A DNA stretch of 64,000 nucleotides from Planctomycetota bacterium (GCA_044338255.1 JBIILZ010000004.1:3808-67807); one strand, 5' to 3'. Positions 5,447-64,000 are shown, counted from the stretch's first letter. The notes: generated from the letters alone by a model not told the origin. Numbers and translations: made by a program.

Positions 5447-5479
5447 CACGGAAGTTATTTCAGGAACCAGGGAAATCAG

Positions 5480-6109: not shown

Positions 6110-6203
6110 CCGTGTGCGCACAGAATCTGCCTCATCACGTTACCCCGCCGATTTCTCGGCGGGGTTATTCTTATCCATCTTCTTCGCACCAAAGGCACTT
6201 ACC

Positions 6204-7498: not shown

Positions 7499-7509
7499 TA
7501 TAGGAGGTT

Positions 7510-8358: not shown

Positions 8359-8455
8359 TCACTGATTCACCGAAGAACTATGCGCTCGTTGCGCACGGCA
8401 ATCACCACCAGCACTGGCTTTTCAGCCGGGGCGTTTTCGTTTCTGGAGAAACCCC

Positions 8456-8671
8456 ATGTCCAAACTCAAGCGCCGCTATTCTTGGCCATCCTCGAAAATA
8501 TCGAAGGATGTCATGTTTGAGGTCTATCAGGTGGCACAGGAAACTGGTCGACCGATCACTGACATCATTGCTGATGCGGTGCACAGCGCGATGAACACAC
8601 GGTTCGACCAGAACCAACGTCAGCCCATCGGTTTCATCCAGACCCAGCAGTCGCCGAGACCGGCAGCCTGA
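8456..8671 (+). CDS. Small hypothetical protein (possible RHH-like)
   Basis: 71 aa, co-oriented between island genes. No strong motif. Confidence 0.35.
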   Translation: MSKLKRRYSWPSSKISKDVMFEVYQVAQETGRPITDIIADAVHSAMNTRFDQNQRQPIGFIQTQQSPRPAA

Positions 8672-8782
8672 TTCGGATGCCTTGACCATCATTCACGACT
8701 TCTGGCGGACCGAGCAAGCTGTCCGCATCTTCCACGGCAATTTCGCAAATCTCTAACACCCATTACACAGAGGATTCATTTC

Positions 8783-9880: not shown

Positions 9881-10576
9881 ATGGAGACCTCCAACGACTT
9901 CACGGTCGGACCTCCGTGCCAAACGCCGCCGGTCATCAATCCACTGCTAGTTGATCACGCGAAGATGAGCGACGCCGACTTGGTAAAAGCGGTTTTTGGC
10001 CATCGAAGGCAGCGGCTTCGCGAACAAATCTCCAGCGCCGTTGATGGGGTTGGGCTGTTGACGATGACTAGCCTTGATCCCATTGCACTCATGACGATTG
10101 CAGACTTGCCGCCAGCAATGGCCGCACGCTTCACGGCAATTGTTGAGCTGGCGCGGCGGCTTGCTGTAGGCAGTCGTCCTGCTCGCGTAAGTCTGATGAA
10201 TCCAGAAGAGGTCTGCGCGGTAATGGCCCCGACCCTTGCCGCAATTTCCCATGAAGAGTTTTGGTGCTTGCCGTTGGATTCCCGTAAGCAACTCATCGGT
10301 TACCCCCGCATTGTCAGTCGCGGCGACGTGGACGGTACGGACGCTGGCACGCGCACGTTTACACGCCAAGCATTGCTCGCTCACGCCACATCCGCGATCG
10401 CTGTTCACAATCATCCGACTGGTGATCCCGCGCCTTCACCGTCAGACCATGCGGTAACCGTGCGACTCGTGAGCGCAGGTCGAAGCGTTGACGTGCCATT
10501 ACTCGATCACGTTATCATCGGCGACGGTGGACGGTTTGTATCACTGAGACGCAATGCACCGGAACTGTTTCGATGA
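9881..10576 (+). CDS. radC: RadC-like JAB/MPN domain protein
   Basis: The JAMM motif HNHPTGDPAPSPSD is followed by LLDHVIIG. The start codon directly abuts the DUF932 stop. Confidence 0.85.
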   Translation: METSNDFTVGPPCQTPPVINPLLVDHAKMSDADLVKAVFGHRRQRLREQISSAVDGVGLLTMTSLDPIALMTIADLPPAMAARFTAIVELARRLAVGSRPARVSLMNPEEVCAVMAPTLAAISHEEFWCLPLDSRKQLIGYPRIVSRGDVDGTDAGTRTFTRQALLAHATSAIAVHNHPTGDPAPSPSDHAVTVRLVSAGRSVDVPLLDHVIIGDGGRFVSLRRNAPELFR

Positions 10577-11261
10577 ACCGCCTTGACCATCCATCAACAA
10601 CCAGGGAACGACCACCGGTAGCGCCGGGAATTTACCAGAGTGATGCTCCCCCGGTAAACGTGATCGTTTCGTTAGCGTCACACTCCAGGAATCAGCATCG
10701 CCGAAATTGCGCGGCCACCGCACAAGTGGGAGGCGTCACACATGGCGAATAATAATAAAGATCCGTGTCGGTTACAGTGGATCGAGGGCCTTCTGGTGGC
10801 GCTGACCGCGCTGCTGGCTTGGTTGGCTCGGCGCAGGCCGTAAAAAAAAATCGGCGAATCTTGATGGTACAAATTGGCACTTGGAAAAACAATTTGGGAC
10901 GGTAAAGTTCTCATACCTCAGCCCTGCCTGCCGAGCACTGTACTTGTTTTACCGGCCTTTTTTCAGGCCCAACCGTACTCGCAAAACTCAACTGTACCCG
11001 GCAGCCTAGCGTTCATGCCGGTGTTGTATCGGCGTGCGCAAAGTCTTCGAAGCGACGTGGCAAACGTCGCGGGCTCTTGCTTGCGAGTACATCATGGCTG
11101 TAAAACCCAAAGGCCACGCCCTTTTGGCAACTTCGTCGCGCACGAAGGCTAAATTTCACACGACCACCCACCAGAAGGTCGGTCCCCGCACATCTAAAAC
11201 ACTGAAATCCCGTCGTGGGATCGTTCCTGTTCGACAGGCAGCGATCCCACGAGAGGGGTTG

Positions 11262-11441
11262 ATGACCATGGATGAGATCTGCGCCTATACCAAAATCGCA
11301 CGTTCAACCATCTATCGGTATCTTGCGAACGGCCTGAAAACGTATCAACACGGCCCTGGCGGTGCGCGTCGCTTCCTTGTTGGGGACGTGTTGCATTTCT
11401 TGTCTCGTCCGGCGTCAGTGAACACGGGGGTGGTGTCATGA
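11262..11441 (+). CDS. Excisionase/AlpA-type HTH DNA-binding protein
   Basis: MTMDEICAYTKIARSTIYRYLANGLKTYQHGPGGARRFLVGDVLHFL fits the excisionase-family HTH pattern. It is the first gene of a tightly packed xis-orf-recombinase operon. Confidence 0.6.
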   Translation: MTMDEICAYTKIARSTIYRYLANGLKTYQHGPGGARRFLVGDVLHFLSRPASVNTGVVS

Positions 11442-11839
11442 ACACATCCACGAAAAACCTGATTGTTGGCGTAAATTTCAAAACCTATTTCACGAAAGAA
11501 ACTGCCATGCAGATCGTTTCCGATCCGCCTATGGCGGATTTTTATCGCCATCCGGTGACCTCCTTCCTCGGAGTTCAACCTGAATGGCGTCATGAAGATT
11601 CATCGAATGTCCGGCCATCTCCTCGCATTGCTCGATCGTCTAAAAGCACGCGTGGTGTCGTAAAGCATGCGCCGCCAGATTTTCACCGCCCTGGCTCGGT
11701 CGCGGTCGAATTCCGTTCGACTGGAGATGTTCAGGTTTCTCGGCGCATTGCCGAAGGGGTGATGCTGCTGCGGCAGTGGGGGCGTGAGGCAATCGCCGCT
11801 CGGTCGTTGAATGAACCTGTTTCGGCGTTGGCGAGCTGA
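11438..11839 (+). CDS. Hypothetical protein in the recombination module
   Basis: The start overlaps the xis stop (ATGA at 11438) and the stop lies 2 nt before the recombinase start. No motif recognised. Confidence 0.4.
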   Translation: MNTSTKNLIVGVNFKTYFTKETAMQIVSDPPMADFYRHPVTSFLGVQPEWRHEDSSNVRPSPRIARSSKSTRGVVKHAPPDFHRPGSVAVEFRSTGDVQVSRRIAEGVMLLRQWGREAIAARSLNEPVSALAS

Positions 11840-11841
11840 AC

Positions 11842-13467
11842 ATGAAACCAATACCAATCACGACAACCACGAAACCATATGTGATCTACACCCGGGTTTC
11901 AACCGAAGAGCAGGCTGAAAAAGGTCACAGCCTCGCGGCTCAGGAAAAAGCATGCCGCGCGACGTGCGAAGGTCGTGGCCTTCCCATTGGTCATGTGTTG
12001 TGCGACTCAGGCCAGAGCGCAAAGAATCTCGATCGCCCACAAGTTCAGCGTTTGTTGGAGATGGTCCGCGCCGGGCAGATCGGTGGCATCATGATTTGGC
12101 GGCTCGACCGCTTGACGCGCAACCTCCGTGATTTGCTTGATTTGGTCGAGTTGATTTCGGAAACAAATACGGCACTTGTCTCGGTCTGTGAGCAGATCGC
12201 CACCGATACTCCGGCAGGGCGCATGATGTTGGCCATCCTTGGGACCGTTGCGCAATGGGAACGCGAGACGATCGCTGAACGAATCCGCATGGGCGTTCGC
12301 CAGCGCATTCAGGATGGTGGTTGGACCGGTGGGCCAACGCCTGCTGGCTGCAAAGTAGTAGAAGAAGCAGGCGGGAAAATGTTGGAGGTCGACCCGACGA
12401 CCGCGCCCATCGTCAGTCAGATCTGGTCCATGGTGGCGAATGGAGCAACGCTCAACGACGTCGCCGTGTACCTGACCGAGGGTGGCATTGAACCACCGCG
12501 CAAGATGGGGTGGCGTCCAGCAACCGTCCATTCGCTCTTGAAGCAGATTCGTCTCATCGGGTTGCTGGTGTCCGATGAGACCTTCAATGCGGCTCATGCT
12601 GTGCTTCGGTCTCGGAGCTGCCCGGCTCGTCCCAATGGCGGTGCTCGCCTCTCCAGTCAGTCGCGGTCTGAACGCATCTGGCCACTGGCCAACTTGGCCC
12701 GCTGCGCCCACTGCGGCGGTTCTATGTTTGGGCACTCGGCCGTGAGCGGCAAAGGAGTCCGCTACTTCTACCTCCGCTGCACCAACAAGACCAAGAACCT
12801 GTGCAAGGCCCCAGACCTTGCGGCTCCGGTTTGGGAGGCTGCCATCTGCAAGGCGGTGCAGATGGTGTTGGTCGACCAGGGGCCGTATGCTGAGCGTCTC
12901 AATGCGACGACCGTTGAGCTTCAGCGCCGAGCTAGCACCCGTCAGGTTGACCTGGACGTGATGATCAAGGAGCGCGATGGGGTACAGGCACGCATCGCCC
13001 GACTGGTGAGCCTCGCAGAAGCTGGCGATGTCCCGATCAAGGGGATCGCCGATCGACTCAAGGAACTGGAGAAGGAGTCGGCTACCCTGGACCTGAAGGT
13101 TGCCGAGATGGAAGGGCTGTCGTCAGCCGCGCACATCGACGGCGACAGCGTGCAGATGCTCCTGGAGCAGATGCAGGCCGGGTCGGTGGGACTGGAGAGC
13201 CGCACCCCGGAAGAGCAGAAGCTGGTCCTGCACAGCCTCCTGGTGGAGGTGCAGATTGGCCTTGGGAAGCCAATCGGCTTAGCCATGTGGATGCCGGATC
13301 TGATGGCCTTGGCCGGGTCCAAAGGGACACCGCAAACCAAGGAACCCATGCCAACCGGAGGGGTTTCCTCCGGCGGACATGGGTTCGCCTGGTCATCTTC
13401 ATTGGTGGAGGCGGAGGGAATCGAACCCTCGTCCGAACATGTTCGTACACCGCGTCTACGCGTGTAG
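11842..13467 (+). CDS. Large serine recombinase (island 1 integrase)
   Basis: Resolvase catalytic domain: YVIYTRVSTEEQ (Ser nucleophile) and WRLDRLTRN. A recombinase domain, a zinc ribbon (CAHCGGSMFG...YLRCTNKTKNLC) and a coiled-coil follow. The last ~21 codons plus the stop (13403-13467, 65 nt) are encoded by the antisense of the tmRNA 3' end. Confidence 0.9.
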   Translation: MKPIPITTTTKPYVIYTRVSTEEQAEKGHSLAAQEKACRATCEGRGLPIGHVLCDSGQSAKNLDRPQVQRLLEMVRAGQIGGIMIWRLDRLTRNLRDLLDLVELISETNTALVSVCEQIATDTPAGRMMLAILGTVAQWERETIAERIRMGVRQRIQDGGWTGGPTPAGCKVVEEAGGKMLEVDPTTAPIVSQIWSMVANGATLNDVAVYLTEGGIEPPRKMGWRPATVHSLLKQIRLIGLLVSDETFNAAHAVLRSRSCPARPNGGARLSSQSRSERIWPLANLARCAHCGGSMFGHSAVSGKGVRYFYLRCTNKTKNLCKAPDLAAPVWEAAICKAVQMVLVDQGPYAERLNATTVELQRRASTRQVDLDVMIKERDGVQARIARLVSLAEAGDVPIKGIADRLKELEKESATLDLKVAEMEGLSSAAHIDGDSVQMLLEQMQAGSVGLESRTPEEQKLVLHSLLVEVQIGLGKPIGLAMWMPDLMALAGSKGTPQTKEPMPTGGVSSGGHGFAWSSSLVEAEGIEPSSEHVRTPRLRV

Positions 13468-13765
13468 GCAGTCATTTGTCGTCATCCATGAACACGACGG
13501 CTGCCAGCCTGGTTCATGGAGCAGTCCGGCTTTTCCTCGCTGACGGTAATCGGACGGCTCCGTCAGCCAGCTGATAATTATTATGGAAATTGCCGGGAGC
13601 ATCAGCACCCCCGGGTCTCCAACTCGTTACTTAATTAATTAAGCAGCGAGAGCGTACTCGACATGATCGTCGGCACGTGTGTTTTTGCGGGTTATTTACG
13701 TGGCCTCCCGCACCACGACGCGCGGCAAAGCGCCGGTGCATGCCCGTCGAAACCTGGTCGCCCCC
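13403..13765 (-). ncRNA. ssrA: tmRNA (SsrA)
   Basis: On the minus strand the 5' end is GGGGGCGACCAGGTTTCGACGGG. The 3' end is GGGTTCGATTCCCTCCGCCTCCACCA, with the G3:U70 pair in the acceptor stem. The tag ORF GCC GAC GAT CAT GTC GAG TAC GCT CTC GCT GCT TAA encodes ADDHVEYALAA. It is followed by TAATTAATTAA, which gives stops in all three frames. Confidence 0.9.
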
Positions 13766-16115: not shown

Positions 16116-16120
16116 GGGCG

Positions 16121-51682: not shown

Positions 51683-51756
51683 TGGGGCATCGTCTAACGG
51701 TAGGACTGCAGATTCTGGCTCTGCCTATCGGGGTTCGAATCCCTGTGCCCCAACCA
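51683..51756 (+). tRNA. tRNA-Gln (anticodon CUG), CCA encoded
   Basis: Hand-folded. The acceptor is TGGGGCA/TGCCCCA with a U1-A72 pair typical of tRNA-Gln. The D arm is GTCT-AACGGTA-GGAC. The anticodon stem is GCAGA/TCTGC with loop TTCTGGC. The T arm is CGGGG-TTCGAAT-CCCTG. Discriminator A and CCA follow. Confidence 0.9.
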
Positions 51757-53248
51757 ACCAGGACGGCTGTACAAAACAGCCGTTTTGACCTGTGATGGCC
51801 CTCCCCTGCAAGGGGGAGGGCCACGCTTTTAGGGTCATATGCCTATCAAACCCGCAATGAACTTCTGCTAACAAGGCGCTTATCACGGCCTGTTGCTCGT
51901 CATTTGGCCGGCCCAACAGGCGATCAAGCCCTGTGCGAAGCCGTTCGGCCTGAATTTCCAGATCGTCATCCTTGATGCGTGCATGGGCTAGAGCGCCTTC
52001 GATGCGATCGAGGTTTTTCTGGGCTACAGCCTGCTCTTCGCTCAGTCTTTCGACTTCGCCCCGAGCGGCGGTCGCTAGGGCGTCTCCTTTGGCGAGGAGA
52101 TCGATGATGCGTGCGATTCGTGCCTGGCATCCATCGCGCAGTCGGGCGTGCTTGGCCCGCTCCTCGATGAGCAGTTCCCCGCGAAGGGCGTTTGCCGCTC
52201 GTTCACGCGCCCAAATCTTCATGAGTGGTCCGTCGGTGCCCGCGAGAGAGGAAAGTGCCTGTAATGCGGCTCTTTCCCATGCTACGGCAGGAAGGTCTCT
52301 GGCCGTGCATCCCGCATGTGCGATTTTTCTGGAGCAACGGTAGTAGGGATACGCCTGCCCATGTCGCCCGCATGATGTTACTCCGACTAAGCGGCCACCG
52401 CATAGGGCACAACGCCCAACACTTCCCAAAACCCAGATACGATTCGTGCCGCGGCCGATCTTCTTCCGAGCTCCCTCACCAAAGCCGGCACGATCATTTG
52501 GACGCCTGTCGACCAGCGCTTTGGCTGCGCGTACAAATGTATCTAAATCGATGAGCTGTCCGATATATCGACGTTGGCGGATCAATCTTGCTACTGCTTG
52601 CCTGCTCCATGGACGATTGCGTGGAGATTGCACACCATTGCTGCGCAGCCAGTCGCTCAGTTCGGCCAAAGATTCTCCTTCGAGGCAGCGATGCCAGACC
52701 TGGGCAACGATCGGTCCGTGTTCAGGATGAACGATGAGCTTTTTGTTGCCTGGTGGCCCAATGACAACGAGCCCTGCGGGGACCGGACCACCAACGAAGG
52801 CTCCCTTCGACTTAAGCAATCGCATAGACGCTCCGACCCGTTCGCTGATCGCTTCGCGCTCATATTGGCCAAAAGTTCCTAAAATCCCTAAGAACATCCG
52901 GCCGACCGCGGATTCCGTATCCAAGTTTTCGGTTACCGAAACGAGTTCAATATTGTTTTGGTTACACAATTTCACCAGCGAACACAGGTCGCTCACTGAG
53001 CGACTCAAGCGGTCGAGCTTCCAGACGCAGATACCCTTCACGCTTCCTGTTTTGACCAGCTCCAGGACTCGCTTCGCTCCTGGCCTCATGAGATCCTTAG
53101 CGCTGAATCCCGCGTCTTCTACGTGGATGGGATCGTTCACGCCTTTGCTGAGCAGAAGCGCCCTGCATCGCTCGAGTTGAGAGGACAAGCTAACGCCCTC
53201 GCGAGCTTGATCCTCGGTGGACACTCTCGTGTAGATGACCCAGTGCAT
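51725..53248 (-). CDS. Large serine recombinase (island 2 integrase)
   Basis: MHWVIYTRVSTEDQ contains the Ser nucleophile. WKLDRLSRS, a recombinase domain, a zinc ribbon (CALCGGRLVG...YYRCSRKIAHAGC) and a coiled-coil follow. The last ~10 codons plus the stop (51725-51756, 32 nt) are antisense to the tRNA-Gln T-arm and acceptor. Confidence 0.9.
   Translation of the reverse strand: MHWVIYTRVSTEDQAREGVSLSSQLERCRALLLSKGVNDPIHVEDAGFSAKDLMRPGAKRVLELVKTGSVKGICVWKLDRLSRSVSDLCSLVKLCNQNNIELVSVTENLDTESAVGRMFLGILGTFGQYEREAISERVGASMRLLKSKGAFVGGPVPAGLVVIGPPGNKKLIVHPEHGPIVAQVWHRCLEGESLAELSDWLRSNGVQSPRNRPWSRQAVARLIRQRRYIGQLIDLDTFVRAAKALVDRRPNDRAGFGEGARKKIGRGTNRIWVLGSVGRCALCGGRLVGVTSCGRHGQAYPYYRCSRKIAHAGCTARDLPAVAWERAALQALSSLAGTDGPLMKIWARERAANALRGELLIEERAKHARLRDGCQARIARIIDLLAKGDALATAARGEVERLSEEQAVAQKNLDRIEGALAHARIKDDDLEIQAERLRTGLDRLLGRPNDEQQAVISALLAEVHCGFDRHMTLKAWPSPLQGRAITGQNGCFVQPSWLVGAQGFEPR
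51763..51787 (+). terminator. Hairpin plus T-run downstream of tRNA-Gln
   Basis: acggctg tacaaaa cagccgt is followed by ttt. It lies inside the C-terminal coding region of the minus-strand recombinase. Confidence 0.5.
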
Positions 53249-53509
53249 GGATACTCCCGGAGAAGGTGAAGTCAGACGGACTGAATCCTATCATGCACTG
53301 TGGCATTCCATCATGAACCTGGAAAGGGGTTCTTATTCTGTCCGGTCCTTTTGTCTTGACGGTATGCCTGCGGTAGTCGGTTGATGCAAATAATCATCTG
53401 GTCAGGCCTTAAGATAAAAGTGATTCGTAATCTTCCCTGGTGTTGACAGTCCGGAAAATCGGACAGCTTAAAATTGCTTAGAAATACCGCGCATTTTCAA
53501 TAGATTCAT

Positions 53510-55186
53510 GTGCTATGGCTATTTCCAGAGCCGAGTGCAATCGATTGGGCGCGATTCAGGCAGCCAACGATGCTCGACTCGAAATCCATCCTTCAGAATG
53601 CGATCATCCAGACGCGCAACGCAGACGCGCCAAGGCCCTCGAGATCCTTTGGGAACTCGGGGCCATGGCTGCACCCGCAGCTTATCCGGCACCCGAAGAA
53701 TCCACAGGGGCAGATAGCCGTGCGCGACCGTCCATTTGAATCGCCAAACCCACTGGCTGGTCATCGTGTAGCCAAGGCGGTGAGCTGGTTTACCAGCGAA
53801 GAACGAGTTCCCGCCATCGCACCGCGATGGCTCCTCGAACAACCGCTTTGGCATGAGCCCGAACGGGCAATCAAACACGCGCATTTCCGGCGTGATTTCG
53901 TGGCCACCGACCCGCATAATGGCTTTTCGCGGCGCATGATCCTCGAAACCAACAACGACATCGCTGGCCAAACTGGAAGGCACTCTCCGGGCGGCTTGCT
54001 GCGCTGGCTCGACATGGATATCGCGGTCGCCCTCAGTCGGGCTTGGACGGAAAACCGCTCAAAGAATCTAGAATGCTTCCAGAAGGATCTGTTGACCTGG
54101 ATGGGCTACCATTCATCGAATAGGCACCATTCTCCTTATCGAGAAATACGCGGGTCTATTGATCGTCTACGTCGTACCGCGATCGCGCTGTATGCCTATG
54201 GTGATGACCGCTCGCGCGTACCGTGGTTCACGATTCTGTCCGAAGGCAATCTGTGCCAGGAACAGCTCTCGGGTCGTCGTGTCATCTTGCAAGCGCAGCT
54301 CAGCGATGCCTGGACTAAGGTGCTCTCCAGTTTGGAGGATTGGACCATTTTCGACATAGAGTGCTATGCCCATCTTGCCCGCACTAACCTTCGGTTGGGT
54401 CTTTCCCGAGCAATGTACCTCTATTTTGCAGCAAACCGCGACTGGAAAACGATGCAGTTTTCAGTCAGCGTCACGGCGCTCCACGAGCAATTCGGAGATA
54501 GATCGGGAATTGATGGGCCATTGATTTATCGGAACGCCTTCAATCAGAAATCCCGCCTTCGCCGGGCCATCGATCATTTGGCCGGTTCCGGCGTTATCCG
54601 CTTCAGCGATGTAACCCGCAATCACCTACTCAACGGAGAATTTATCAGGCCGAGCAGCCTCATCACGTTTGCCACAATCGAGCAGGAGCGCGCTCATCGT
54701 ATCGGTACTCAAGAAGAATTACCTTTCTTGACGGGCCCGCTGCTGGCGCTCAGTGCGCAATCAGTCGAGGCGCAAGTAGCGATACCGAAGAACCCGCCGC
54801 GTACGGTTCCAAAGATTTTTCATACGTTCACCGAGCTATTGCCCAGCCTGCGCCCTGCATTGCTACAGCGGGCATGCGACAACGGATGGACTCAGGATCA
54901 ATTGAGCAATTTTCTCGGATATCTGTTTTGGAAGGAGGCGAACGGTGGGGTCCATAGCCTCATCGGGCTCGCAGTTCGATTGCTGGATGAGGGAATTACG
55001 GATCCTCAGCATCGTGAACTGCGCTGGTGCTGGCATGGGATCAGTAGCGAGATCGGTCTTTCGACTCGGGAGGAATGGATCGCCTGGACACGAAAAGAGG
55101 TGGTCCGCAGACGCGCTCTGAAGGGAAGGTTCACAGAGCAAAGAAAAGTTACCACATCTGTCCCAGAGATGGAGACCCAGCCATGA
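53510..55186 (+). CDS. Putative plasmid-type replication initiator (RepA/TrfA-like); function tentative
   Basis: 558 aa from GTG 53510, with an alternative ATG at 53570. GGLLRWLDMDIAVALSRAW and the later YLYFAANRDWK...VSVTALHEQFG resemble winged-helix Rep initiators. It lies directly upstream of parA, with an ATGA overlap. Confidence 0.4.
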   Translation: MLWLFPEPSAIDWARFRQPTMLDSKSILQNAIIQTRNADAPRPSRSFGNSGPWLHPQLIRHPKNPQGQIAVRDRPFESPNPLAGHRVAKAVSWFTSEERVPAIAPRWLLEQPLWHEPERAIKHAHFRRDFVATDPHNGFSRRMILETNNDIAGQTGRHSPGGLLRWLDMDIAVALSRAWTENRSKNLECFQKDLLTWMGYHSSNRHHSPYREIRGSIDRLRRTAIALYAYGDDRSRVPWFTILSEGNLCQEQLSGRRVILQAQLSDAWTKVLSSLEDWTIFDIECYAHLARTNLRLGLSRAMYLYFAANRDWKTMQFSVSVTALHEQFGDRSGIDGPLIYRNAFNQKSRLRRAIDHLAGSGVIRFSDVTRNHLLNGEFIRPSSLITFATIEQERAHRIGTQEELPFLTGPLLALSAQSVEAQVAIPKNPPRTVPKIFHTFTELLPSLRPALLQRACDNGWTQDQLSNFLGYLFWKEANGGVHSLIGLAVRLLDEGITDPQHRELRWCWHGISSEIGLSTREEWIAWTRKEVVRRRALKGRFTEQRKVTTSVPEMETQP

Positions 55187-55905
55187 CACTAGTCCGCATA
55201 GCCGTCGCCGCACGCAAGGGCGGAGTCGGAAAGACGACGCTGGCGACCGGCCTGGCATCAGCGTTCGCTGCCGTTGGCATCGAGACGTTGCTGTTCGACC
55301 TTGACCCCCAGAGCAATGCCGCCTTCGCGTTGGGCGTTGATCCGACTGCACAGGGGACTGCCGAATATCTCACGGGTAAAGCCGTCGAGCCGACAGGGGC
55401 TGCACCTCATTTGCATGTCTTTCCTGGCGGACCGGCTTTGACCAGTTACCTCATCGAGAGCCTCGACGTCGAAGAGCTCCATGACCGAATTCGAGGTCGA
55501 AATGAATCAGTGATCATCTTTGATTGCCCTCCCGGGGAGGAGCACCTCGAACGTTTAGCGCTCGTGGCAGCTGATGTTGCGTTGGTAACCGTAGATGCCC
55601 ATCCATTCGCCGTGAGCGGTGCAGCGCGGGTGCTGGACCTCATCGCGAGCCGAAGGCTCAAGGGAAGGCAATGCCCACACAGGCTTGCCCTGATCGCATC
55701 ACGGATAGATGCCCGCCGCAGCTTCGATCGGGAGCTTGTTCAGCAATTGGCTCAGGCTTTCCCCAACATTCCGATTTTCAGCGTTCGCCAGGATGCCGCG
55801 CTTGCTGCCGCATCTGCCGACCGCATTCCCATCGCCAAAGCGGCACCTGAATGCCGTGGCTACCACGACCTCATCTCCATAAAGGAATGGATACATGACC
55901 ACTGA
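55183..55905 (+). CDS. parA: ParA-family partition ATPase
   Basis: The deviant Walker A is AARKGGVGKTTLA. DLDPQSN and IFDCPPG are also present. Confidence 0.85.
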   Translation: MTLVRIAVAARKGGVGKTTLATGLASAFAAVGIETLLFDLDPQSNAAFALGVDPTAQGTAEYLTGKAVEPTGAAPHLHVFPGGPALTSYLIESLDVEELHDRIRGRNESVIIFDCPPGEEHLERLALVAADVALVTVDAHPFAVSGAARVLDLIASRRLKGRQCPHRLALIASRIDARRSFDRELVQQLAQAFPNIPIFSVRQDAALAAASADRIPIAKAAPECRGYHDLISIKEWIHDH

Positions 55906-56698
55906 TCGTAATCGCGTCGTCTCTCAGGATGCCCTGGATGCCGGGCGTGCTTTATCACGCCAAGAAAGTGCCATGAACGCCGATGGGGCGGAAATGCAGG
56001 GACGTCGGACAATCTCGTTGGAGGGAATCCAAGACCGCCATGCGGAGACCCGCAAGCTCACGCCAAGCCATGTTGAGCATTTGAGCGAAAGCATAGCTGC
56101 GTTGGGCCTGATCGAGCCGATCGTTGTCGACCGTTCGGGCCGCTTGTTGGCAGGTGGGCATAGGCTGCAGGCGATCAAGCAGCTCAAGGCTGAATCGCCC
56201 ACCGTTTTTGTGGAGCGATTTCCTAATGGCATGATCCCGGTCCGTATCATGGATCTGAATGCGGATACGGATCATCAGCAGGCATTGGCTATCGAGGTCG
56301 CAGAGAACGCGCAGCGCCGAAACTACACTTCCCGGGAGGTAAAAAAGCTAGCCAAGCGCTTAGTGAAAGCTGGCTATAAAGACACTGCTGGCCGCCCGAA
56401 AGATGGAGAGAAATCACTCGCGCCGGCCCTTGCGGTGGTGATTGGTTGCAGCTTGAGAACGGTTCGGAGACACCTCAGCTCGACCGATAATCAAATAGTG
56501 ACAGATGTCACCATTACTTCAGATCCATCGCATTTTCTGGCAGTTCAACAGCTTTTAATCGCGACCAATAAAGGTCTCGATAAGCTGAACTCCTGCGCTG
56601 AGGTTCCGGCTGATCTCATGGCGATTGCGCGGCAGTTTTCGGATTGCCTGAAAAGTGAGATTCAGCGTCTTGGGGCTGTAAGGCGAGAATTGGCCTGA
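55895..56698 (+). CDS. parB: ParB-like nuclease-domain / partition protein
   Basis: LTPSHVEHLSESIAALGLIEPIVVDRSGRLLAGGHRLQAIKQL is the ParB N-terminal motif with GxHR. An HTH-like region follows. It overlaps the parA 3' end. Confidence 0.8.
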   Translation: MTTDRNRVVSQDALDAGRALSRQESAMNADGAEMQGRRTISLEGIQDRHAETRKLTPSHVEHLSESIAALGLIEPIVVDRSGRLLAGGHRLQAIKQLKAESPTVFVERFPNGMIPVRIMDLNADTDHQQALAIEVAENAQRRNYTSREVKKLAKRLVKAGYKDTAGRPKDGEKSLAPALAVVIGCSLRTVRRHLSSTDNQIVTDVTITSDPSHFLAVQQLLIATNKGLDKLNSCAEVPADLMAIARQFSDCLKSEIQRLGAVRRELA

Positions 56699-56760
56699 GT
56701 CCTTTTGAAGGTCTAATGGCAAAAAGACTACCGCATACGAAGACAGCGATGCAAGATATA

Positions 56761-56795
56761 GGTTATACATTAAAACGGTGTTTTACTGTATAACC
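56761..56795. repeat. AT-rich 16-bp-stem hairpin (1 mismatch, 3-nt loop)
   Basis: ggttatacattaaaac ggt gttttactgtataacc. It lies between parB and the mobC-like gene. Confidence 0.85.
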
Positions 56796-56908
56796 GCGGT
56801 CCCACTCGCTGCCGTCTCTCCCTTTGGTCGAGAACGGCGCTTGGGGCTTTATGATATGTCCGTGCCACTGCGCTTTGCTTGTGATCACACTTTCCAAATG
56901 GCATACTC

Positions 56909-57316
56909 ATGACTATCCCACGCGTTCAGATTACCGTTTATTTAACGGCCGAAGGCCAAGCGTTACTACGCGAACGCATGAGGACGTCTGGCCTTAATGC
57001 GTCTCAATATTTCGGTTCCCGGTTAAAAAATGCCGATGTGCGGGTCACCCGGCACACATCCGCTCCGAGCAATATTTCCTCGGACGCCATTGGACTGGCG
57101 AGGAAGATGTCCGAGCACATGAATGAAATTGCACGTCGGATCAATTCGGCAGACCGCAATGAGCCATTCCCGATGGCCCGTGAGGAGTTTGATCTCATAG
57201 ACCGCGCTGCGACTCTGTTGGTGGCCAAGCTTTTGCATATCAAAAATGTGGGGAAAGTTAGCCGGAAACTGGGCATAACCAAATGGATGAGGGGCTCCAA
57301 CAGCCATAACGATTAA
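56909..57316 (+). CDS. MobC-like relaxosome accessory protein
   Basis: RVQITVYLTAEGQALLRERMRTSGLNASQYFGSRL is RHH-like. The later MSEHMNEIARRINS follows the MobC pattern (..NlNQiAr.lN). Confidence 0.5.
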   Translation: MTIPRVQITVYLTAEGQALLRERMRTSGLNASQYFGSRLKNADVRVTRHTSAPSNISSDAIGLARKMSEHMNEIARRINSADRNEPFPMAREEFDLIDRAATLLVAKLLHIKNVGKVSRKLGITKWMRGSNSHND

Positions 57317-57417
57317 CCCATGGGGATAGGTTCGGCTAAGCGCTCAATGATTCTTAATTTGGATAAGTTGACGAAATGATCAGCATAAATTCCCCACGTG
57401 GACCTGCAGGGCGCCTC

Positions 57418-60400
57418 TCAGGAGCACGCCTGCTTCACCGCATGCAACAACACCTGCTTCGCCTTCACCTGACCGTAGAACCAATCAGTCGACCAGATGC
57501 GGTGCAGGTTCCAATCCCGTTCTTTGAGGATTTCTTCCCGTAGATGGTCACGATCACGCGCCGCACGGCTGCTGTGGTAGGTCGCTCCATCGCACTCGAT
57601 GCCGAGCGCGAAGCGGCCAGAGTCACGTGGGTGGCGGACGCCCAGATCGACAAAGTAGCCGCACACGCCGACCTGCGGCTCGATCGTGTATCCCTCGGCA
57701 CGTAGGAACGCTGCCACGGCCTCCTCGAACGGCGAATCCATCGACTGGCCCGTACGAGAGCCAAGGTCTGGCACCGCCACACGTCGATCTGTCTCGCAAT
57801 AGCGAAGAAATCGGTGAAAATCGACCACGCCTTCATTCTTTCCCTCGCCAATAAGAATTTGTTCGCTGCGCATCGAAGAAAAAACGACCATCTGCTGCTT
57901 CGCACGCGTGATGGCTACATTGAAACGGCGCTTTCCTGCAATCCCGTTGATCGATTTGAATCGCTGATGCACCTTGTCCGTGCCTGGGTACTCTGGCCCG
58001 TACGTGCATGCGATCACGATGATGTCCCGTTGATCACCTTGGAAATTTTCGAGGTTGCGAACGATGAGCGGCTCAACGCCGCGGCTTTCCTCCTCCATTA
58101 GGATCTTGGCCACGATGGCATCACCCTGGCGAGCTTGATCGAGCAGATTGCTGATCGCCTCCTGATGACGCGCGTTCATCGTCAATACGCCGATGGTGGC
58201 GCGCTTCTTAGGCGGAATTCCAGCATAGGAACGAAGCGTTTTTACCAAGTACCCGACTACCGCACCTGCTTCGGGGGTATTGACCTGATTACGGAAAAAG
58301 CCGTCTGGGACGTAGTGGTGCTTGATCCCTCGGTCATCACGACGGTCAACGGCTGACGGAAAAATGATGAGTCGGTGGTTGTAGGAGAATGCGTTGGCAG
58401 GAGCTATGAGCTCTTGGTGCTGGCTGCGGTAGTGCCAGATCAAACCCGACTCGGGAAGCGATGCCTTGGCGAGTTCCAGGATGCTCTCGGCGGCCGCAGC
58501 CTCGGCTTCTTCGTCCTCCTCTTCCACGTCATTGGTCGTGGTTGACTGGAAGAAGTTGCTCGGTGGCATCTGTGCTGGATCACCGACGATGACGACTTCA
58601 CGACCACGAGCGATAGCCCCGAATGCATCTTCGGGAGTGAGCTGTGAGGCTTCGTCCATTACCACCAAATCGAATTCAATGGCCCCAGGGGACAGATATT
58701 GAGCGACCGCGAGCGGGGTCATCAGCCAGCACGGACACAGGTCCTGCATCGCCTTACCTGCCCTGGTGACAAGCTTACGAATTGGGAAATGCTTCCGCTG
58801 TTTGGAGCGCTCCTTGTCGAGCAATGCCCGCTGCGTCATATCGGCAGTAACACGACTATTTCGTCCTGCTTCCACATGACGACTCGCCACCGAAGCGATC
58901 ACACGCGCCTGATTCTTTTCCAGCATCGAGAGGTCATGGGCGGCGAATTCTTTGCGCTCGGCTTGATGGCGGCTCCCCGTGAAATTAGCCAACACAGGAT
59001 TCGCCTGGATAACCATTTCGGCTTGACGGTACAAGATGAGCGAGGCGAACACCGCTAGCATATCCTCGGCTGAGGGACGCGTAATGCGCAAGGTGTTGAG
59101 GAGCTGGGCCAGACCGTCATCTGCAAGCTGACGCTCCAACCGCAGCAGGTCGGCGAACGGCAGCAGAGATGCCTCAGCGTCGCTGAGCTGTGCCAAAGCT
59201 GTTCGCCGCTGAACAACCGTTTGAGAAAATAGGCATGTTCCACACGGGCCTTCGTACGTCTGCTTGCCAAATCGTTCGGCGAGCGCGACATGCTCTTCGG
59301 TCGCTTTGAACAGCGACTCGGCAATGCCAGAAAGTGCTTTAAGGTGATCGAGGGCAGCGCGAGTCCCCAATCCCAGCAACCACGCACATAGCTTCGACGG
59401 CAGCTCACGTGCCTGCGCCACGAGAAGCCAATGATCGCGCATCATCGTTGGCGTGAGGTCGGTGGTGCGGAATCCGACTCGATCATCGTAGGTCGCCATC
59501 TCGCGGGCCACCGCAGCCGCTTGGGTGTGGGACTCCAAGCTACGCGTCAGGTCGGACAGCGTCAGGACAGGTGTTGAGGCGGCCGAAGACAGCAGATCGA
59601 GCGATGAACGCCATTCCGCAAGCGATCGAGGCAGGTGATCGTGCCAGGTCGCAACGGGACTATCCGTCGTCGCGTCGGCAATATTGAGCATACCCACCGT
59701 GCGAGCGGTCTCGATGGTATCCTTTACCTGGTTCGCGCTGAAAGCGAGACGCTTCCACCACGTGGCGCGATGTTCCGCATCCGCCGCAACGATCCACTGC
59801 ACAAGCGGAACGGAGACGTCGTTTGCGCGAACCGCTCGCGTCCACTCGGTGCTGACGGTGACTGGATCCAGGTCACTGGAACCGAAACCCTGACCCAGTT
59901 CCTTCGACCAGGGTGCGATGGTCGTGGTGATTGCTCGCACCTGCTGCGCGCTGCGCAAAACGTCTGCAACCGTGCCGAGTGTCGTTTCACGTTGCGTGTG
60001 CAGGAGGGCGATGGTGGTGCGCATGCCGACCATTGTGGTGCGGATCGCTTCCAAGGTGGCGACGACGTCGCTGGCCTGACGAGCATCCTCAATTCCGATT
60101 CTAGCTGCTACCCGAGCATGTGCAGCTTCGATTTCGGCAACGGCATCACGGCATGCCCGCAGGGTCATGCGTGCATCGCCAACCACCAAATCGAGGCACG
60201 ATTGCAGTGTGAATCCAGCTGCCATGAGATTGGAGGTCCACTGGCGAGCCTCTTCAATAGATGATACACGCACTTGGTTCCAGGTGCGGCCAGCAAGTAC
60301 GACCGCGAATGGCTTTAGACCACCAGCGGTAAATTGGCTGTCAGTGTACGCTCCGATTACTTCCAGCGCCTGATTCGGTGTTACACCGGCTTGTGCACCC

Positions 60401-63400
60401 AGGCCATCGAGTGCAGTGACGATGCGACCAAGCCGAGACGCTGCGGCGGACATCGCCGACGCCTGCGATTCAAGCAACGTCAAGGATTCGCAGTTCCCCG
60501 TCGAGGATTGCCACGCCTTCCAGCTGACCAAAGCAGCGATGTGCGTGGAAGTTGACGGCAGTCCAGCAACCTGTGTGGTTGCGAACCACCGTAGAATGCT
60601 GCCTGCTTCCTCCCTCGGCAACGTGCGAACCCAGGCGAAGATCTGCTGTGCTTGCGCCCAGTTGGAATCGATGCCTTTCCATTGAGCGCCCAGCGCCATC
60701 GCACCGATGCCATCCTGATCGAGTGCGGCAACGGCGCGCTTCCAAGCCACCAATCGATCCAGCAGGGTGATGAGTTCCTGAGTGGAAGGAAGGGCAGCGG
60801 TACAGAATCGCATGAGCCGCGCACGCGCTGCACGCCACGACGAGCTGAACCAACGGAAGATTCCCGTCTGCGTTGCGAATGTCCTCCGCAGGGCGGTAAT
60901 AGCGTCTGCGTCTGGTGCCTCAGAGAGAAGGAAGTGGGATGCAAGACGATCGCGCTCCTGCACGAGCTGGCGCCCAGTCTCAGCGATCACCTCGATCGTG
61001 GCTTGAATCGGAAGCTCTGCCCAGCGCCCCAACTGCGTCGGCATCACAGGACTCGGGAACGTGCGGAGGATTTCCACCGTGGCGAAGGCGCCTGTTACGT
61101 GGTCGTGGTTGGTCGCTTCGGGGAGGCCCCATGCTGCCAGCAGCTGGTCCGCGACTTGAACAGCTCCACGTCGACCCTGTTCGATGCGAGCCATCACCTC
61201 CTGGTCGCGACGGAGGTCATCGAGTGGACGATCAGCCCATGCCGGTACCGTCGAAAGACCCCCACGGATCGTCGCGACTGCCTCGTCCTGTTCGTCGAGA
61301 TTGCCCGCTAGACGTCCACGGATTTGTGCGAATTTGACTTCTATTGCCTGGAAGGCTGCGAGCTGAGAGGCCAGCTCTGGCACCTTTTTTAGCGGAAGCA
61401 CGCCCTGGCAGACAGCAGCCACCGTTGGCTGATCGATCTCGGTGAGCGACAACGCGCGTGACACGAACGGCGTACGGGCGAGCGCCAAAAGAGCCCCCAC
61501 TGACGGCGAAGCTAAGCGGGGAAGAATAGGGGATGTGCGTGCAGAGATCGCATGCCAGGCGGCAACTACATCGGCAACAGAAACAGCCAATTCTTCCAGT
61601 GCAGAGAGTTGCACGGTATGCGCGGCGCGTGGCAGTGAAGCTAAGCGTTCCGCCAACGAATCCTGAGCGGCACCATCGACATTTCCCAGGCCGATACCGC
61701 TCGTGCTAATGGCCAACTGGTGGTCCCGTAGGCTGCTCAGCGAGGACACCAGCTCAGCAATACGAGTGAAGGCGTCGCCGCCCGCCAAGAGGTAGGCGAC
61801 GACACGCTGGTTGAGCTGTCTTGGGATCGCAGGGACCGCGTCGTGTGGGAACTCAGTAAGAGCGTGCAGGGTTCCCCACGTGAGCCCACCAAGCGCCTGC
61901 ACGCCTTCGGGCAGTTCCCCTGCGATTGCACGGTGGGTTTCCAGTGCGAGGTGGACCGAGTTGATGTGGTCGAGAGCCGATCCCGCTTCGGCCAGGCGGG
62001 TGCCAGGCACGAGGCCCCCCGTTAGCTGGCGCACGGCGGGACCGAGTCGTTCAACGATTTCTGCCGGCTTTTCGTTTCGCAGCGGCAGTGACTGGGTCGC
62101 GCTGCTCACATGACTCGCGTACTGTTTCACCAGCGCTTCGAGCGTGGCTACCTGTTTCACGTCGCCGCCCGATGCCGCGGCGATCTTCGATACGATCCAT
62201 GGCGATGGACGTTCGATGAAGGGCACGGCGCGAATTGCGAGCAGACTCTTTTTTACTGACGCCAGCGACTGTTCGCTGAGACTGGGATCGATAAGTTCCA
62301 GCGCCGTTTTCAGGTCGGAAACCTTTTCCAAACAGACGCGCAGGCTTCGCATGACCTGGGGCACTTGCGACGCCATCAGGTCGATCGGGGACCACCCAAT
62401 CCAGGTGTCGTTGGTGTTATCCAGCAGATGGCGCCACTCACGCAATGCATGGTCAGCTTGCGCTTTCCACGCATCGACGGCGATCTGGGTAGGTGGGAGA
62501 CTGAGCTGAATACTTTCAGCTGAGAACTCCGACCCCAAGATCTGCTGAGCCCGTTCTCTCGTGGCATTTGCCGACCTGATGACGGTCGCGTTGACACCGT
62601 AGACACCGATGCCACTGAGTCCGTTGGCGACCGTATTCAGCCGCTTCGCCGCGGCGGTCAGATGGGAGTTGCTGGCCGCCGAGCGGGGAGCCTTGGTGCG
62701 TGCGTCCTCAGCCTTTTGAAAATGTTGATGGACCTCGACTGGCCGCGACTTGTCGGTGTAGAGCGGAAGACAGAAATCGCTCACACCAACCTTGGTCAAA
62801 TTGCTGAACACCACGTTGAGAGCGGCCATCTTCTGAGCGACGAATAGGACTCGTTTCCCTTCGTGCAGAGCGGTGGCTATCAGGTTGGTAATTGTCTGCG
62901 ATTTGCCTGTGCCTGGTGGACCGATGATCGTGATCGACGTGTTGTTGCGAGCGGCAAGCAGCGCGGCGTACTGGCTCGAATCGGCATGGAGCAGAATCGG
63001 CAGATCTTCCTGCGCTTGGTGCTCGGCGACCTCCTCGGCAGAAGGGATAGGGGATTGCTCATTCGGGTCGTAATACGCGCGACGTTCAGCGAGGGCTGCG
63101 ATGACGGGATGTTCGAAGAGAGCCGACTGGTCTGGCCAATTGGCTGGATCCAGATCCAGCCACATGCGATACCTCGAAAAATTAAAGAAACCCAGGCTGA
63201 TCGTCGGATGTATCTTGCAGCCGAGCTTGCGGCTCACGGCTTGCGTGATTGCACCGATGTAATCAGACCAGGTTTCGTACTTTTCTGAGTCGTAGTCGGG
63301 GAGGGTTAGCCTTTGATCGGACTTGAATTTTTGAATCAGGCACGGGTTCCCCTGCGCCTCGTCGGCATCCATCTCGATGGTGAATTTTAAGTCACCGCCC

Positions 63401-64000
63401 CCAGGGGGTGTGAGCCGCTTCAATTTCACGTGCACCAGGATCAGCGGGCTGCACACGCGAGTCCGCTTTGGTCCTTCGGGTTCTTGCTGCACGGGGACTT
63501 TGATCCTCGACGGTCCTTCCTCGATTTCCCAGTCCAAAAATCCGATTGCCAGGAAGAGACAGGAGTCCCCCGTTGATGATTCGAGCGTCTCCTGCTTGCG
63601 ATAGATCGTCAGCAGCTTGGCGGTGCTGGCTTTCAGCGGTAGCGGGCTGATTAGACCACCCTCGGCGATATACGTCTGCAAGCGCTTTGCGATGTCGTCG
63701 GTCGACCGTGATTTGCTCGAACCGCTCTGTCTCGTGCGAATGCTGAGCGCATGACCAGCGATCTCGGTTTCCACGTCCCCAGATCGAAGGCTGCCGATGG
63801 CCTCGGCCTGCTCCTGTTCCGTGAGGATGAGGATGTCACGTGTGCGTTCCTCAGTGACAAGCTGGTCCCAAGCCGCGCCAGCGTTGCCCATAAGCACGAG
63901 GGAATCGGCAGTCGTCTTACCTTCGTCTGGGTTCCCAGGGCCGAAGTGGACCAGACGGTTCCTACGCGTGAGATCGAGGAGCTTCTGCCGTGCGGCAGCG
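57418..64000 (-). CDS. Giant DUF4011-like / SF1 (Upf1-like) helicase / DUF559-Vsr-like endonuclease fusion protein; N-terminus outside the window
   Basis: The track ORF of 2,159 aa begins at an internal GTG. The same frame stays open from 63898 to 64000 (...AAARQKLLDLTRRNRLVHFGPGNPDEGKTTADSL). Walker A is IIGPPGTGKSQT. Motif II is LVVMDEASQ. Further motifs are VIVGDPAQMPP, YRSQH, FQGDQRDIIV and NVAITRAKQ. The C-terminal PD-(D/E)XK module is GYFVDLG...LGIECDGATYHSS...RIWSTDW. Confidence 0.85.
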   Translation of the reverse strand, partial: AAARQKLLDLTRRNRLVHFGPGNPDEGKTTADSLVLMGNAGAAWDQLVTEERTRDILILTEQEQAEAIGSLRSGDVETEIAGHALSIRTRQSGSSKSRSTDDIAKRLQTYIAEGGLISPLPLKASTAKLLTIYRKQETLESSTGDSCLFLAIGFLDWEIEEGPSRIKVPVQQEPEGPKRTRVCSPLILVHVKLKRLTPPGGGDLKFTIEMDADEAQGNPCLIQKFKSDQRLTLPDYDSEKYETWSDYIGAITQAVSRKLGCKIHPTISLGFFNFSRYRMWLDLDPANWPDQSALFEHPVIAALAERRAYYDPNEQSPIPSAEEVAEHQAQEDLPILLHADSSQYAALLAARNNTSITIIGPPGTGKSQTITNLIATALHEGKRVLFVAQKMAALNVVFSNLTKVGVSDFCLPLYTDKSRPVEVHQHFQKAEDARTKAPRSAASNSHLTAAAKRLNTVANGLSGIGVYGVNATVIRSANATRERAQQILGSEFSAESIQLSLPPTQIAVDAWKAQADHALREWRHLLDNTNDTWIGWSPIDLMASQVPQVMRSLRVCLEKVSDLKTALELIDPSLSEQSLASVKKSLLAIRAVPFIERPSPWIVSKIAAASGGDVKQVATLEALVKQYASHVSSATQSLPLRNEKPAEIVERLGPAVRQLTGGLVPGTRLAEAGSALDHINSVHLALETHRAIAGELPEGVQALGGLTWGTLHALTEFPHDAVPAIPRQLNQRVVAYLLAGGDAFTRIAELVSSLSSLRDHQLAISTSGIGLGNVDGAAQDSLAERLASLPRAAHTVQLSALEELAVSVADVVAAWHAISARTSPILPRLASPSVGALLALARTPFVSRALSLTEIDQPTVAAVCQGVLPLKKVPELASQLAAFQAIEVKFAQIRGRLAGNLDEQDEAVATIRGGLSTVPAWADRPLDDLRRDQEVMARIEQGRRGAVQVADQLLAAWGLPEATNHDHVTGAFATVEILRTFPSPVMPTQLGRWAELPIQATIEVIAETGRQLVQERDRLASHFLLSEAPDADAITALRRTFATQTGIFRWFSSSWRAARARLMRFCTAALPSTQELITLLDRLVAWKRAVAALDQDGIGAMALGAQWKGIDSNWAQAQQIFAWVRTLPREEAGSILRWFATTQVAGLPSTSTHIAALVSWKAWQSSTGNCESLTLLESQASAMSAAASRLGRIVTALDGLGAQAGVTPNQALEVIGAYTDSQFTAGGLKPFAVVLAGRTWNQVRVSSIEEARQWTSNLMAAGFTLQSCLDLVVGDARMTLRACRDAVAEIEAAHARVAARIGIEDARQASDVVATLEAIRTTMVGMRTTIALLHTQRETTLGTVADVLRSAQQVRAITTTIAPWSKELGQGFGSSDLDPVTVSTEWTRAVRANDVSVPLVQWIVAADAEHRATWWKRLAFSANQVKDTIETARTVGMLNIADATTDSPVATWHDHLPRSLAEWRSSLDLLSSAASTPVLTLSDLTRSLESHTQAAAVAREMATYDDRVGFRTTDLTPTMMRDHWLLVAQARELPSKLCAWLLGLGTRAALDHLKALSGIAESLFKATEEHVALAERFGKQTYEGPCGTCLFSQTVVQRRTALAQLSDAEASLLPFADLLRLERQLADDGLAQLLNTLRITRPSAEDMLAVFASLILYRQAEMVIQANPVLANFTGSRHQAERKEFAAHDLSMLEKNQARVIASVASRHVEAGRNSRVTADMTQRALLDKERSKQRKHFPIRKLVTRAGKAMQDLCPCWLMTPLAVAQYLSPGAIEFDLVVMDEASQLTPEDAFGAIARGREVVIVGDPAQMPPSNFFQSTTTNDVEEEDEEAEAAAAESILELAKASLPESGLIWHYRSQHQELIAPANAFSYNHRLIIFPSAVDRRDDRGIKHHYVPDGFFRNQVNTPEAGAVVGYLVKTLRSYAGIPPKKRATIGVLTMNARHQEAISNLLDQARQGDAIVAKILMEEESRGVEPLIVRNLENFQGDQRDIIVIACTYGPEYPGTDKVHQRFKSINGIAGKRRFNVAITRAKQQMVVFSSMRSEQILIGEGKNEGVVDFHRFLRYCETDRRVAVPDLGSRTGQSMDSPFEEAVAAFLRAEGYTIEPQVGVCGYFVDLGVRHPRDSGRFALGIECDGATYHSSRAARDRDHLREEILKERDWNLHRIWSTDWFYGQVKAKQVLLHAVKQACS

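Follow-up and report, generated by a model that had tools for sequence, protein, structure and literature searches.

Two paralogous large serine recombinases (LSRs) in one planctomycete genome each run in antisense out of an island and into the 3' end of the RNA gene that borders it, one at the tmRNA gene and the other at tRNA-Gln, 38 kb apart; the geometry is inherited within their recombinase family, and the cores at the junctions we compared are short. We propose that both islands are integrative elements, probably of a mobilizable, plasmid-like kind, and that each would be inserted by its own LSR, which recombines attP with an attB at the very 3' terminus of a tRNA or tmRNA gene. The crossover would fall in the last 8–15 bp, on the 3' side of the acceptor stem or at the ACCA end, where the P' arm of the island would swap in for those few bases and bring a terminator-like hairpin behind the RNA gene, which should remain intact because nothing but its last few bases is substituted. 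P' arm and core would lie inside the 3' end of the recombinase open-reading frame, which would lack a stop codon on the island side of the junction, so that the integrated frame would run antisense into the RNA gene up to a chance stop, and on the excised circle the last 10–33 codons would be supplied by the other end of the island. We give this full reading, LSR-driven insertion at a t(m)RNA 3' end with attP in the 3' end of the LSR gene and a neutral run-on tail, a probability of about 0.78 on the sequence comparisons that follow.

Recombinases and islands in the window

The window, the whole 64,000-nt stretch of DNA that was analysed, covers positions 3808-67807 of a 68,413-nt contig (C25 of genome G000) from a 219-contig MAG, the contig ending 606 nt past the window. 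ARAGORN reports two RNA genes in it, tRNA-Gln and tmRNA, and the features at and around them are as follows:

1..13402, island 1 (GC profile, Pfam), with a SNF2 helicase, a DUF3799 nuclease, DUF932, RadC and LSR1
11034-11441, plus strand, HTH_17 protein (open-reading frame, Pfam), 5' neighbour of the LSR1 start region
11438-11839, plus strand, 133-aa open-reading frame (open-reading frame call), abutting the LSR1 start
11842..13467, plus strand, LSR1, 541-aa large serine recombinase (open-reading frame, Pfam), presumed integrase of island 1
13403..13765, minus strand, tmRNA gene (ARAGORN), tag ADDHVEYALAA, target of island 1
51683..51756, plus strand, tRNA-Gln(CTG) (ARAGORN), intact with CCA encoded, target of island 2 (B arm and core)
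51725..51756, 32-nt overlap of the LSR2 frame with the tRNA-Gln 3' end, holding the last 10 residues and the TAG stop
51725..53248, minus strand, LSR2, 507-aa large serine recombinase (open-reading frame, Pfam), presumed integrase of island 2
51757..64000, island 2 (GC profile, Pfam), with LSR2, RepA-like, ParA, ParB-like and NikA-like genes and a giant helicase-nuclease

The tmRNA gene is full length (Rfam RF00023, 183 bits, model positions 1-374 of 374), and the tRNA-Gln sequence is identical among congeners whether the island is present or absent. GC content is ~0.55-0.58 in both islands vs. 0.64-0.68 in the 38-kb core block that separates the tmRNA site of island 1 from the tRNA-Gln site of island 2. 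Both islands are incomplete, each extending beyond the end of the contig, and they look like integrated plasmid-like or mobilizable elements; the RepA-like gene of island 2 is a weak match and its helicase-nuclease is at least 2159 aa long (Pfam). No match to the tyrosine recombinase domain PF00589 was found on this contig, and there are 10 on the other contigs of the genome. The HTH_17 protein and the 133-aa frame may be candidate directionality or regulatory factors for LSR1.

LSR1 ends in ...SLVEAEGIEPSSEHVRTPRLRV, its stop 65 nt inside the tmRNA 3' end, and LSR2 ends in ...NGCFVQPSWLVGAQGFEPR (also given as ...GCFVQPSWLVGAQGFEPR), its TAG stop 32 nt inside tRNA-Gln. Both carry Resolvase, Recombinase and Zn_ribbon_recom domains (PF00239 at E 9e-35 in LSR2 and 3e-39 in LSR1; PF07508 and PF13408 pass the cut-off in each), and across 27 homologues the residues Y6, R8, S10, D79 and R80 and the zinc-ribbon cysteines C280, C283, C305 and C314 are invariant. 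The two proteins share 37% identity over their whole length (E 3e-96), with the motif pairs IYTRVSTEDQ/IYTRVSTEEQ and KLDRLSR/RLDRLTR, and the alignment reaches the last residues, LVGAQGFEP vs. LVEAEGIEP, where each RNA 3' end is read in the same frame. We infer that LSR1 and LSR2 are the active integrases of their islands.

The first-pass annotation of this DNA had described an LSR2 that stops at 51725 inside tRNA-Gln after reading through the hairpin behind it, a catalytic core and zinc ribbon common to two recombinases, and two islands of like geometry flanking one block. All of this stands: open-reading frame and ARAGORN agree on the stop, the hairpin (51759..51787) lies within the frame, the quoted motifs recur in the full-length alignment that had been proposed as a check, and LSR1 at tmRNA and LSR2 at tRNA-Gln, together with the GC profile, bear out the symmetry.

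The overlap with RNA genes among homologues

A 495-aa LSR homologue in a congener (G004, same genus) stops at the identical base of its own tRNA-Gln. LSR2 homologues at 45-53% identity likewise end in tRNA-Gln antisense, LSR1 homologues at 63-88% identity bear the same tmRNA-antisense tails, and among the nearest database homologues (P0002-P0027 for LSR2, P0049-P0069 for LSR1) nearly all C-termini are translations of a t(m)RNA 3' end in antisense, with tail peptides such as GFEPR, GDSNPR...CLQPLSHLS, G(I/L)RT and MVEAxGIEP. Over a broader set of LSR loci from many phyla, 42/108 open-reading frames stop in an antisense t(m)RNA gene or shortly after it. On one-genome-per-species contigs, 22 of ~50 LSR loci have the stop inside or just beyond an antisense tRNA called by ARAGORN (Asn, Ser, Gln, Lys, Pro, Glu, Asp and Arg), in records from Planctomycetota, Chloroflexota, Verrucomicrobiota, Omnitrophota, Myxococcota and Bdellovibrionota; in a sample of Dehalococcoidia genomes 17 of the 31 LSR frames do so (Ala, Lys, Ile, Glu, Val, Asn, Gln and Asp), which brings the tRNA identities across these two sets to 12. 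None of ~76 phage-type LSRs from IMG/VR overlaps an ARAGORN tRNA gene, and one has a tRNA-like tail.

We placed the 108 LSRs on a FastTree phylogeny built with the last 40 residues removed, which has some long branches and shows clustering only. The overlap trait requires 17 changes on this tree vs. 33 when shuffled, and none of 500 shuffles gives so low a number. LSR1 and LSR2 belong to a clade of eight, every member of which sits at a t(m)RNA end (tRNA-Gln twice, tmRNA once, tRNA-Ser four times and tRNA-Lys once). The recombinase lineage is thus tied to t(m)RNA 3' ends, and the geometry is a family trait beyond chance, as the first-pass annotation had supposed for the lineage; its expectation that homologues elsewhere would show the overlap is borne out for the geometry (42/108), and not for the overlap tails, which are not conserved. 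These counts suggest that LSRs commonly target tDNA ends in Planctomycetota, Chloroflexota, Verrucomicrobiota, Omnitrophota, Myxococcota and other phyla.

Position of the crossover

To place the crossover we compared the empty tmRNA site of a congener (G005), two attR-type junctions in the present genome, one attP-like sequence and two complete islands elsewhere. In the complete islands the repeat is short and straddles the tRNA 3' terminus: the tRNA-Lys locus L019, from a 1.56-Mb contig, has the 15 nt of AGTGGTACACCATGA repeated exactly on the same strand 24.6 kb upstream, and at the tRNA-Asn locus L032 the 12 nt of GGAAGTGGCTCC recur at a distance of 11.3 kb upstream. The ~290-nt flank downstream of the island-free G005 tmRNA junction occurs twice in the present genome, on contigs C28 and C53, where just CTCCACCA or CCTCCACCA, 8-9 nt from the end of tmRNA, stands before it; the DNA in front of that is not tmRNA. 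We treat both as attR-type junctions and as candidate partners of island 1. The copy on C28 adjoins high-GC core genes, whilst that on C53 does not; candidate explanations for two diverged copies in one MAG are a tandem array, an island-borne copy or mixed strains. A third LSR (LSR3), on C28, was tried as a second junction and rejected, being N-terminally truncated with an ordinary C-terminus.

The core of island 1 was read from the alignment of these junctions:

13403..13410, putative core of island 1, TGGTGGAG, antisense of the last 8 nt of tmRNA, CTCCACCA (junction alignment)

A metagenomic LSR (P0052, locus L208) departs from its tmRNA-bound sisters exactly after TGGTGGAG, and continues into an arm ~80% identical to the island arm on C28. 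In an alignment of five junctions (attB, attL, the two attR-type junctions and the P-core-P' sequence of L208), CTCCACCA is the sole invariant block. On its left is the tmRNA body in attB and attL, and in the three island arms a T-loop-like GGTyCGrTTyCC, spaced from the core as in tmRNA; on its right, attB and both attR-type junctions have the native flank, and attL and L208 have the P' arm, which is conserved between island 1 and L208. Since no other block is invariant, the tmRNA crossover should lie within the last eight bases. At a tRNA-Ser target the change is just as abrupt, P0007 (locus L096) departing from its tRNA-Ser-bound relatives right after TGGCGGAG.

Judging by these junctions, the crossover falls within the RNA gene's last 8–15 bp, either on the 3' side of the acceptor stem or at the CCA end, and cores of 8–15 bp fit attP × attB integration with a 2-bp crossover. 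The predicted attP and the integrase gene's 3' end overlap, with P' arm and core inside the LSR1 frame, in agreement with the embedded attP of the first-pass annotation. The same annotation had the enzyme targeting T-arm and acceptor sequences together; the T-loop-like motif in the island P arms fits recognition of T-loop plus acceptor sequence, whilst the exchange itself would be confined to the gene's last bases.

The main alternative is a deeper crossover, in the T-loop or anticodon loop, for LSR2 and perhaps LSR1, with an attP that carries the T-arm and an open-reading frame that is wholly island-encoded and the same in both states. We consider this unlikely, although several observations lean its way. 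[quoted passage not shown] The first two of these mean that crossover depth varies between lineages, and the partial mimicry of the T-loop by the P arms may reflect a decayed longer repeat at the tmRNA junctions. Against a deeper crossover, tmRNA identity stops after 8-9 nt at three independent tmRNA-type junctions, the L019 and L032 cores are short and sit at the very 3' end, P0052/L208 and P0007/L096 diverge directly behind their short cores, and the 3' half of tRNA-Gln is single-copy in the assembly.

For tRNA-Gln the shallow position that we favour is placed by analogy only, because island 2 leaves the contig and the congener flanks are without a match. The islands of the window and of G004 have the same target and differ directly past CCA, so their shared core should lie at or inside the tRNA-Gln end. 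In three further relatives (G005, G002 and G013) tRNA-Gln is immediately followed by an unrelated hairpin and U-run without an LSR, and similarity to the window ends at CCA. A search of the whole assembly with tRNA-Gln plus 60 nt for the attR of island 2 gave generic T-arm matches only, and the congener tRNA-Gln flanks gave no syntenic match to this assembly. An 11-mer on C21 was rejected as the attR at chance level, and a match of the G005 flank on C123 was dropped as a transposase (rve_3) fragment rather than synteny. By this analogy, the tRNA-Gln crossover would sit where those of tmRNA, tRNA-Lys and tRNA-Asn do, and the 32-nt overlap of LSR2 with tRNA-Gln would be mostly host-derived DNA beyond the crossover.

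Other loci were searched for cores. No significant repeat was found within the 40-50 kb upstream of L043, L028, L063, L047 and L040, L097 has no 8-mer repeat in its 10 kb, and a 16-nt match at L082 was rejected as a core since it lies in the anticodon arm without extension. Attempts to join C25, C28 and C53 by their ends gave no link, the contigs ending in 64-127-nt sequences common to many contigs.

Hairpins behind the RNA genes

On the island side of each RNA gene, inside the LSR frame, the DNA folds strongly:

13335..13394, minus strand, long hairpin past the tmRNA 3' end, in the LSR1 frame (P' arm), -46.1 kcal/mol, z -7.6
51759..51787, plus strand, island-supplied hairpin followed by UUUU, immediately past the tRNA-Gln 3' end, in the LSR2 frame (putative P' arm), -18.5 kcal/mol, z -5.2
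51792..51826, plus strand, second strong hairpin in the LSR2 3' end, -30.7 kcal/mol, z -4.9

We call the hairpin at 51759..51787 terminator-like only, because it failed a strict terminator scan and just 4 T follow it. An analogous hairpin and U-run stand past tRNA-Gln in G004, and altogether six loci have a strong island-side hairpin a few bases past the RNA 3' end and inside the LSR frame (z -4.6 to -7.6), in most of them with a U-run behind it. The island hairpins may serve as substitute terminators and at the same time form part of the P' arm. The idea that such a hairpin ends the integrase transcript before its stop, giving a non-stop mRNA, was dropped, as the integrase strand has no U-run after the hairpin.

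The probable run-on tail

Because the crossover would lie in the last 8–15 bp, the T-arm codons would be host DNA that is read only in the integrated state. Homologues read through their RNA genes in all three frames, even in the window's own clade, whose tRNA-Ser and tRNA-Lys members use a frame other than that of LSR1 and LSR2; the stops of these homologues range from 13 nt within the tRNA to 215 nt past it, with overlaps of 13 to 292 nt, and those bound to tRNA-Gln have either a 10-aa tail or, where the TAG is absent, one of ~50 aa through the whole tRNA. In rebuilt attP sequences only the last 10-33 aa change, the L019 protein going from 503 to 527 aa and that of L032 from 565 to 552 aa; in a hypothetical attP made with the C28 arm, LSR1 goes from 541 to 551 aa. 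The GFEP and GIEP tails are thus most likely host-encoded run-on translation, and we take the recombinase tail to be functionally neutral. The first-pass annotation had counted the translated T-arm as a feature of the enzymes, a view that the use of host DNA, three frames and variable stops and tail lengths does not sustain; GFEP resembles GIEP because the T-arm is conserved in both RNA genes and read in the same frame, and not through selection on the protein.

Two readings would give the tail a role. The bolder, which we regard as a long shot, is a joint one: the tDNA-specific LSRs would form a single large radiation across phyla and recognise a T-loop-like motif in attB and attP alike, and the swap of tails between integrated and circular forms would act as a state sensor, the two forms of the recombinase differing in stability, activity or directionality. 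If true, this would be a serine integrase with a built-in integration/excision switch. The other, which we rate as very unlikely, holds that the tail encoded by the antisense RNA gene is a selected functional part, for example for state-specific tuning of activity or directionality. LSR1 and LSR2 do share a frame and align to the last residue, the tail necessarily differs between integrated and excised states, and the possibility was raised for DsiB by McMurdie et al. (PMC3146451); but a part under selection would hardly be read in any of three frames, ended at so wide a range of positions and reduced to 10 or extended to ~50 residues on the same tRNA-Gln target, and the LSR1 and LSR2 tails are alike because the T-arms of the RNA genes themselves are conserved.

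That the LSRs are cargo or resolvases, with another enzyme such as a tyrosine integrase inserting the islands and the overlap an accident of stop-poor, GC-rich DNA, draws on the incompleteness of both islands on the contig and on the 10 PF00589 matches elsewhere in the genome and is extremely improbable, as the LSR is always the gene abutting the RNA 3' end, in one orientation, across dozens of unrelated islands and phyla, AT-rich cases occur too (L019 at 43% GC), C25 has no PF00589 match and the short cores fit serine rather than tyrosine recombination.

Implications

Standard accounts assign tRNA and tmRNA integration to tyrosine integrases, and a single planctomycete genome here has paralogous serine integrases at both kinds of gene. 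Island finders that insist on a tyrosine integrase or on a long repeat of the tDNA will overlook such elements, and gene callers will put out integrase C-termini that are artefacts of the junction. These LSRs are also obvious candidates for placing DNA at conserved ends of tRNA genes with the tRNA undamaged.

Comparison with known systems

The classical phage LSRs (Bxb1, phiC31, A118/LI and TP901-1) have protein-coding or intergenic targets, and their genes end before attP. LSR1 and LSR2 resemble the phage type in their domain order (Resolvase, Recombinase, zinc ribbon) and in short att sites with little identity between attP and attB. The LSR survey of Durrant et al. does not mention tRNA.

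Integration of serine recombinases into tRNA genes is called "rare" by Ghinet et al. 2011 (PMC3218068), who name phiRSM1 at the 3' end of tRNA-Ser (Askora et al. 2011, via PMC3218068) and eight Mycobacterium elements (AICEs) at tRNA-Leu. These share with the present islands a serine-family recombinase and an attB at a tRNA gene's 3' end; phiRSM differs in having a small resolvase-like enzyme, and the passages on these elements report no integrase frame that enters the tRNA (PMC3218068).

[quoted passage not shown] The present islands are like those of Islander in their t(m)RNA 3' targets, in a gene restored by island sequence and in an integrase beside an intact RNA gene. They differ in an unrelated enzyme family, C25 being without PF00589, and in cores of 8–15 bp vs. 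the longer displaced fragments that Islander seeks: the displaced pieces of the RNA genes here are 8-9 nt for tmRNA, and for tRNA-Gln none was found in the assembly, both tDNAs being intact.

The closest known system is that of the Dehalococcoides ssrA islands of McMurdie et al. 2011 (BMC Genomics 12:287, PMC3146451), which occur in tandem arrays and carry the ~540-aa serine recombinase DsiB. Its gene is the first beside attL at the tmRNA gene, has no stop before the junction and ends in a divergent C-terminal tail, and McMurdie et al. suggested that it is perhaps complete only on the circle (PMC3146451). LSR1 has the same geometry, its 3' end overlapping attL/ssrA without a stop of its own, with a shorter core, 8-9 nt common to attL and the attR-type junctions vs. 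the 20 bp of DsiB. The six-gene DsiB module, which includes the small serine recombinase DsiA, a RecF-like protein, ParB, a Mom protein gene with an embedded tRNA-like locus and a large protein (PMC3146451), is not seen beside LSR1 or LSR2: the genes upstream of LSR1 encode the HTH_17 protein, the 133-aa frame, RadC and DUF932, and no second resolvase-domain gene occurs among the scanned island frames. LSRs from the sampled Dehalococcoidia genomes, which are not the named DsiB, share 21-31% identity with LSR1 (best E 4e-44) and fall in a clade of their own. The host phylum differs as well, being Planctomycetota, and the paralogue LSR2 sits at a true tRNA gene. The overlap design has therefore been known since McMurdie et al. 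2011 (PMC3146451), of which LSR1 is a new example, and it looks far more widespread than the literature states.

Junctions at the tmRNA gene on other contigs

Two further contigs of the window's own genome carry attR-type tmRNA junctions, with these features:

G000:C53 (L206), 1838-4528: AAA_21 ATPase and RloB-like pair, a defence-type module, with direct repeats on both sides
G000:C28 (L207), 9560-16771: attR-type junction, adjoining high-GC core genes

The repeats on C53 are 328 nt long and 89% identical, and the second terminates in the tmRNA core (the last 8 nt of the gene), followed by the native tmRNA flank; possible interpretations of the repeat-bracketed AAA_21/RloB-like unit are a mini-cassette and a tandem junction. 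On the island side of the C28 junction lies a third large serine recombinase (LSR), N-terminally truncated (12559-13920), and ~520 nt of the host flank recurs on this side as an inverted copy. The congener G005 has an island-free tmRNA site (L196), where a reading frame ~300 nt downstream of the tmRNA, past the junction, resembles the N-terminal portion of a tyrosine recombinase, judging by its translation only.

Variant target sites

At L096 (11560-11720) sits an island from the family that also includes the tRNA-Ser islands (L097). Its site has only TGGCGGAG in common with the tRNA end, and ARAGORN called no tRNA there; possible readings are a secondary site, a tandem junction or an attP-like one. 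In the IMG/VR viral contig L138 (11560-11700), the LSR 3' end enters the 3' part of a tRNA-Glu-like gene, a ~52-nt fragment that comprises the anticodon arm, T-arm, acceptor and CCA without the 5' half, and is followed by a hairpin and U-run. The site may be an attP bearing a long tRNA piece, in which case LSR lineages differ in crossover depth.

Genes upstream of the recombinases

The island 1 recombinase (LSR1), whose 3' end lies inside the tmRNA gene, is preceded by:

11034-11839: HTH_17 protein (excisionase-type fold) and a 133-aa ORF, directly upstream and abutting the LSR1 start

In related islands the corresponding partner is a Peptidase_S24 repressor-like gene (L096 and L097) or a 124-aa ORF (L208); all are possible directionality or regulatory factors.

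Contig ends and island 2 cargo

Contigs C25 (which holds the window), C28 and C53 end in 64-127-nt sequences common to the ends of many other contigs, which they match at 96-100% identity; the two explanations for them are dispersed repeats and overlaps in the assembly graph. Because C25 ends in such sequences, islands 1 and 2 are both cut. The island 2 cargo, all within 53510-64000, comprises:

RepA-like protein, 558 aa, weak match
ParA
ParB-like protein
NikA-like protein
Giant helicase-nuclease (DUF4011/AAA_11/AAA_12/MTES_1575), at least 2159 aa as its reading frame continues past the window edge

Taken together, this cargo looks like that of an integrated plasmid or mobilizable element.
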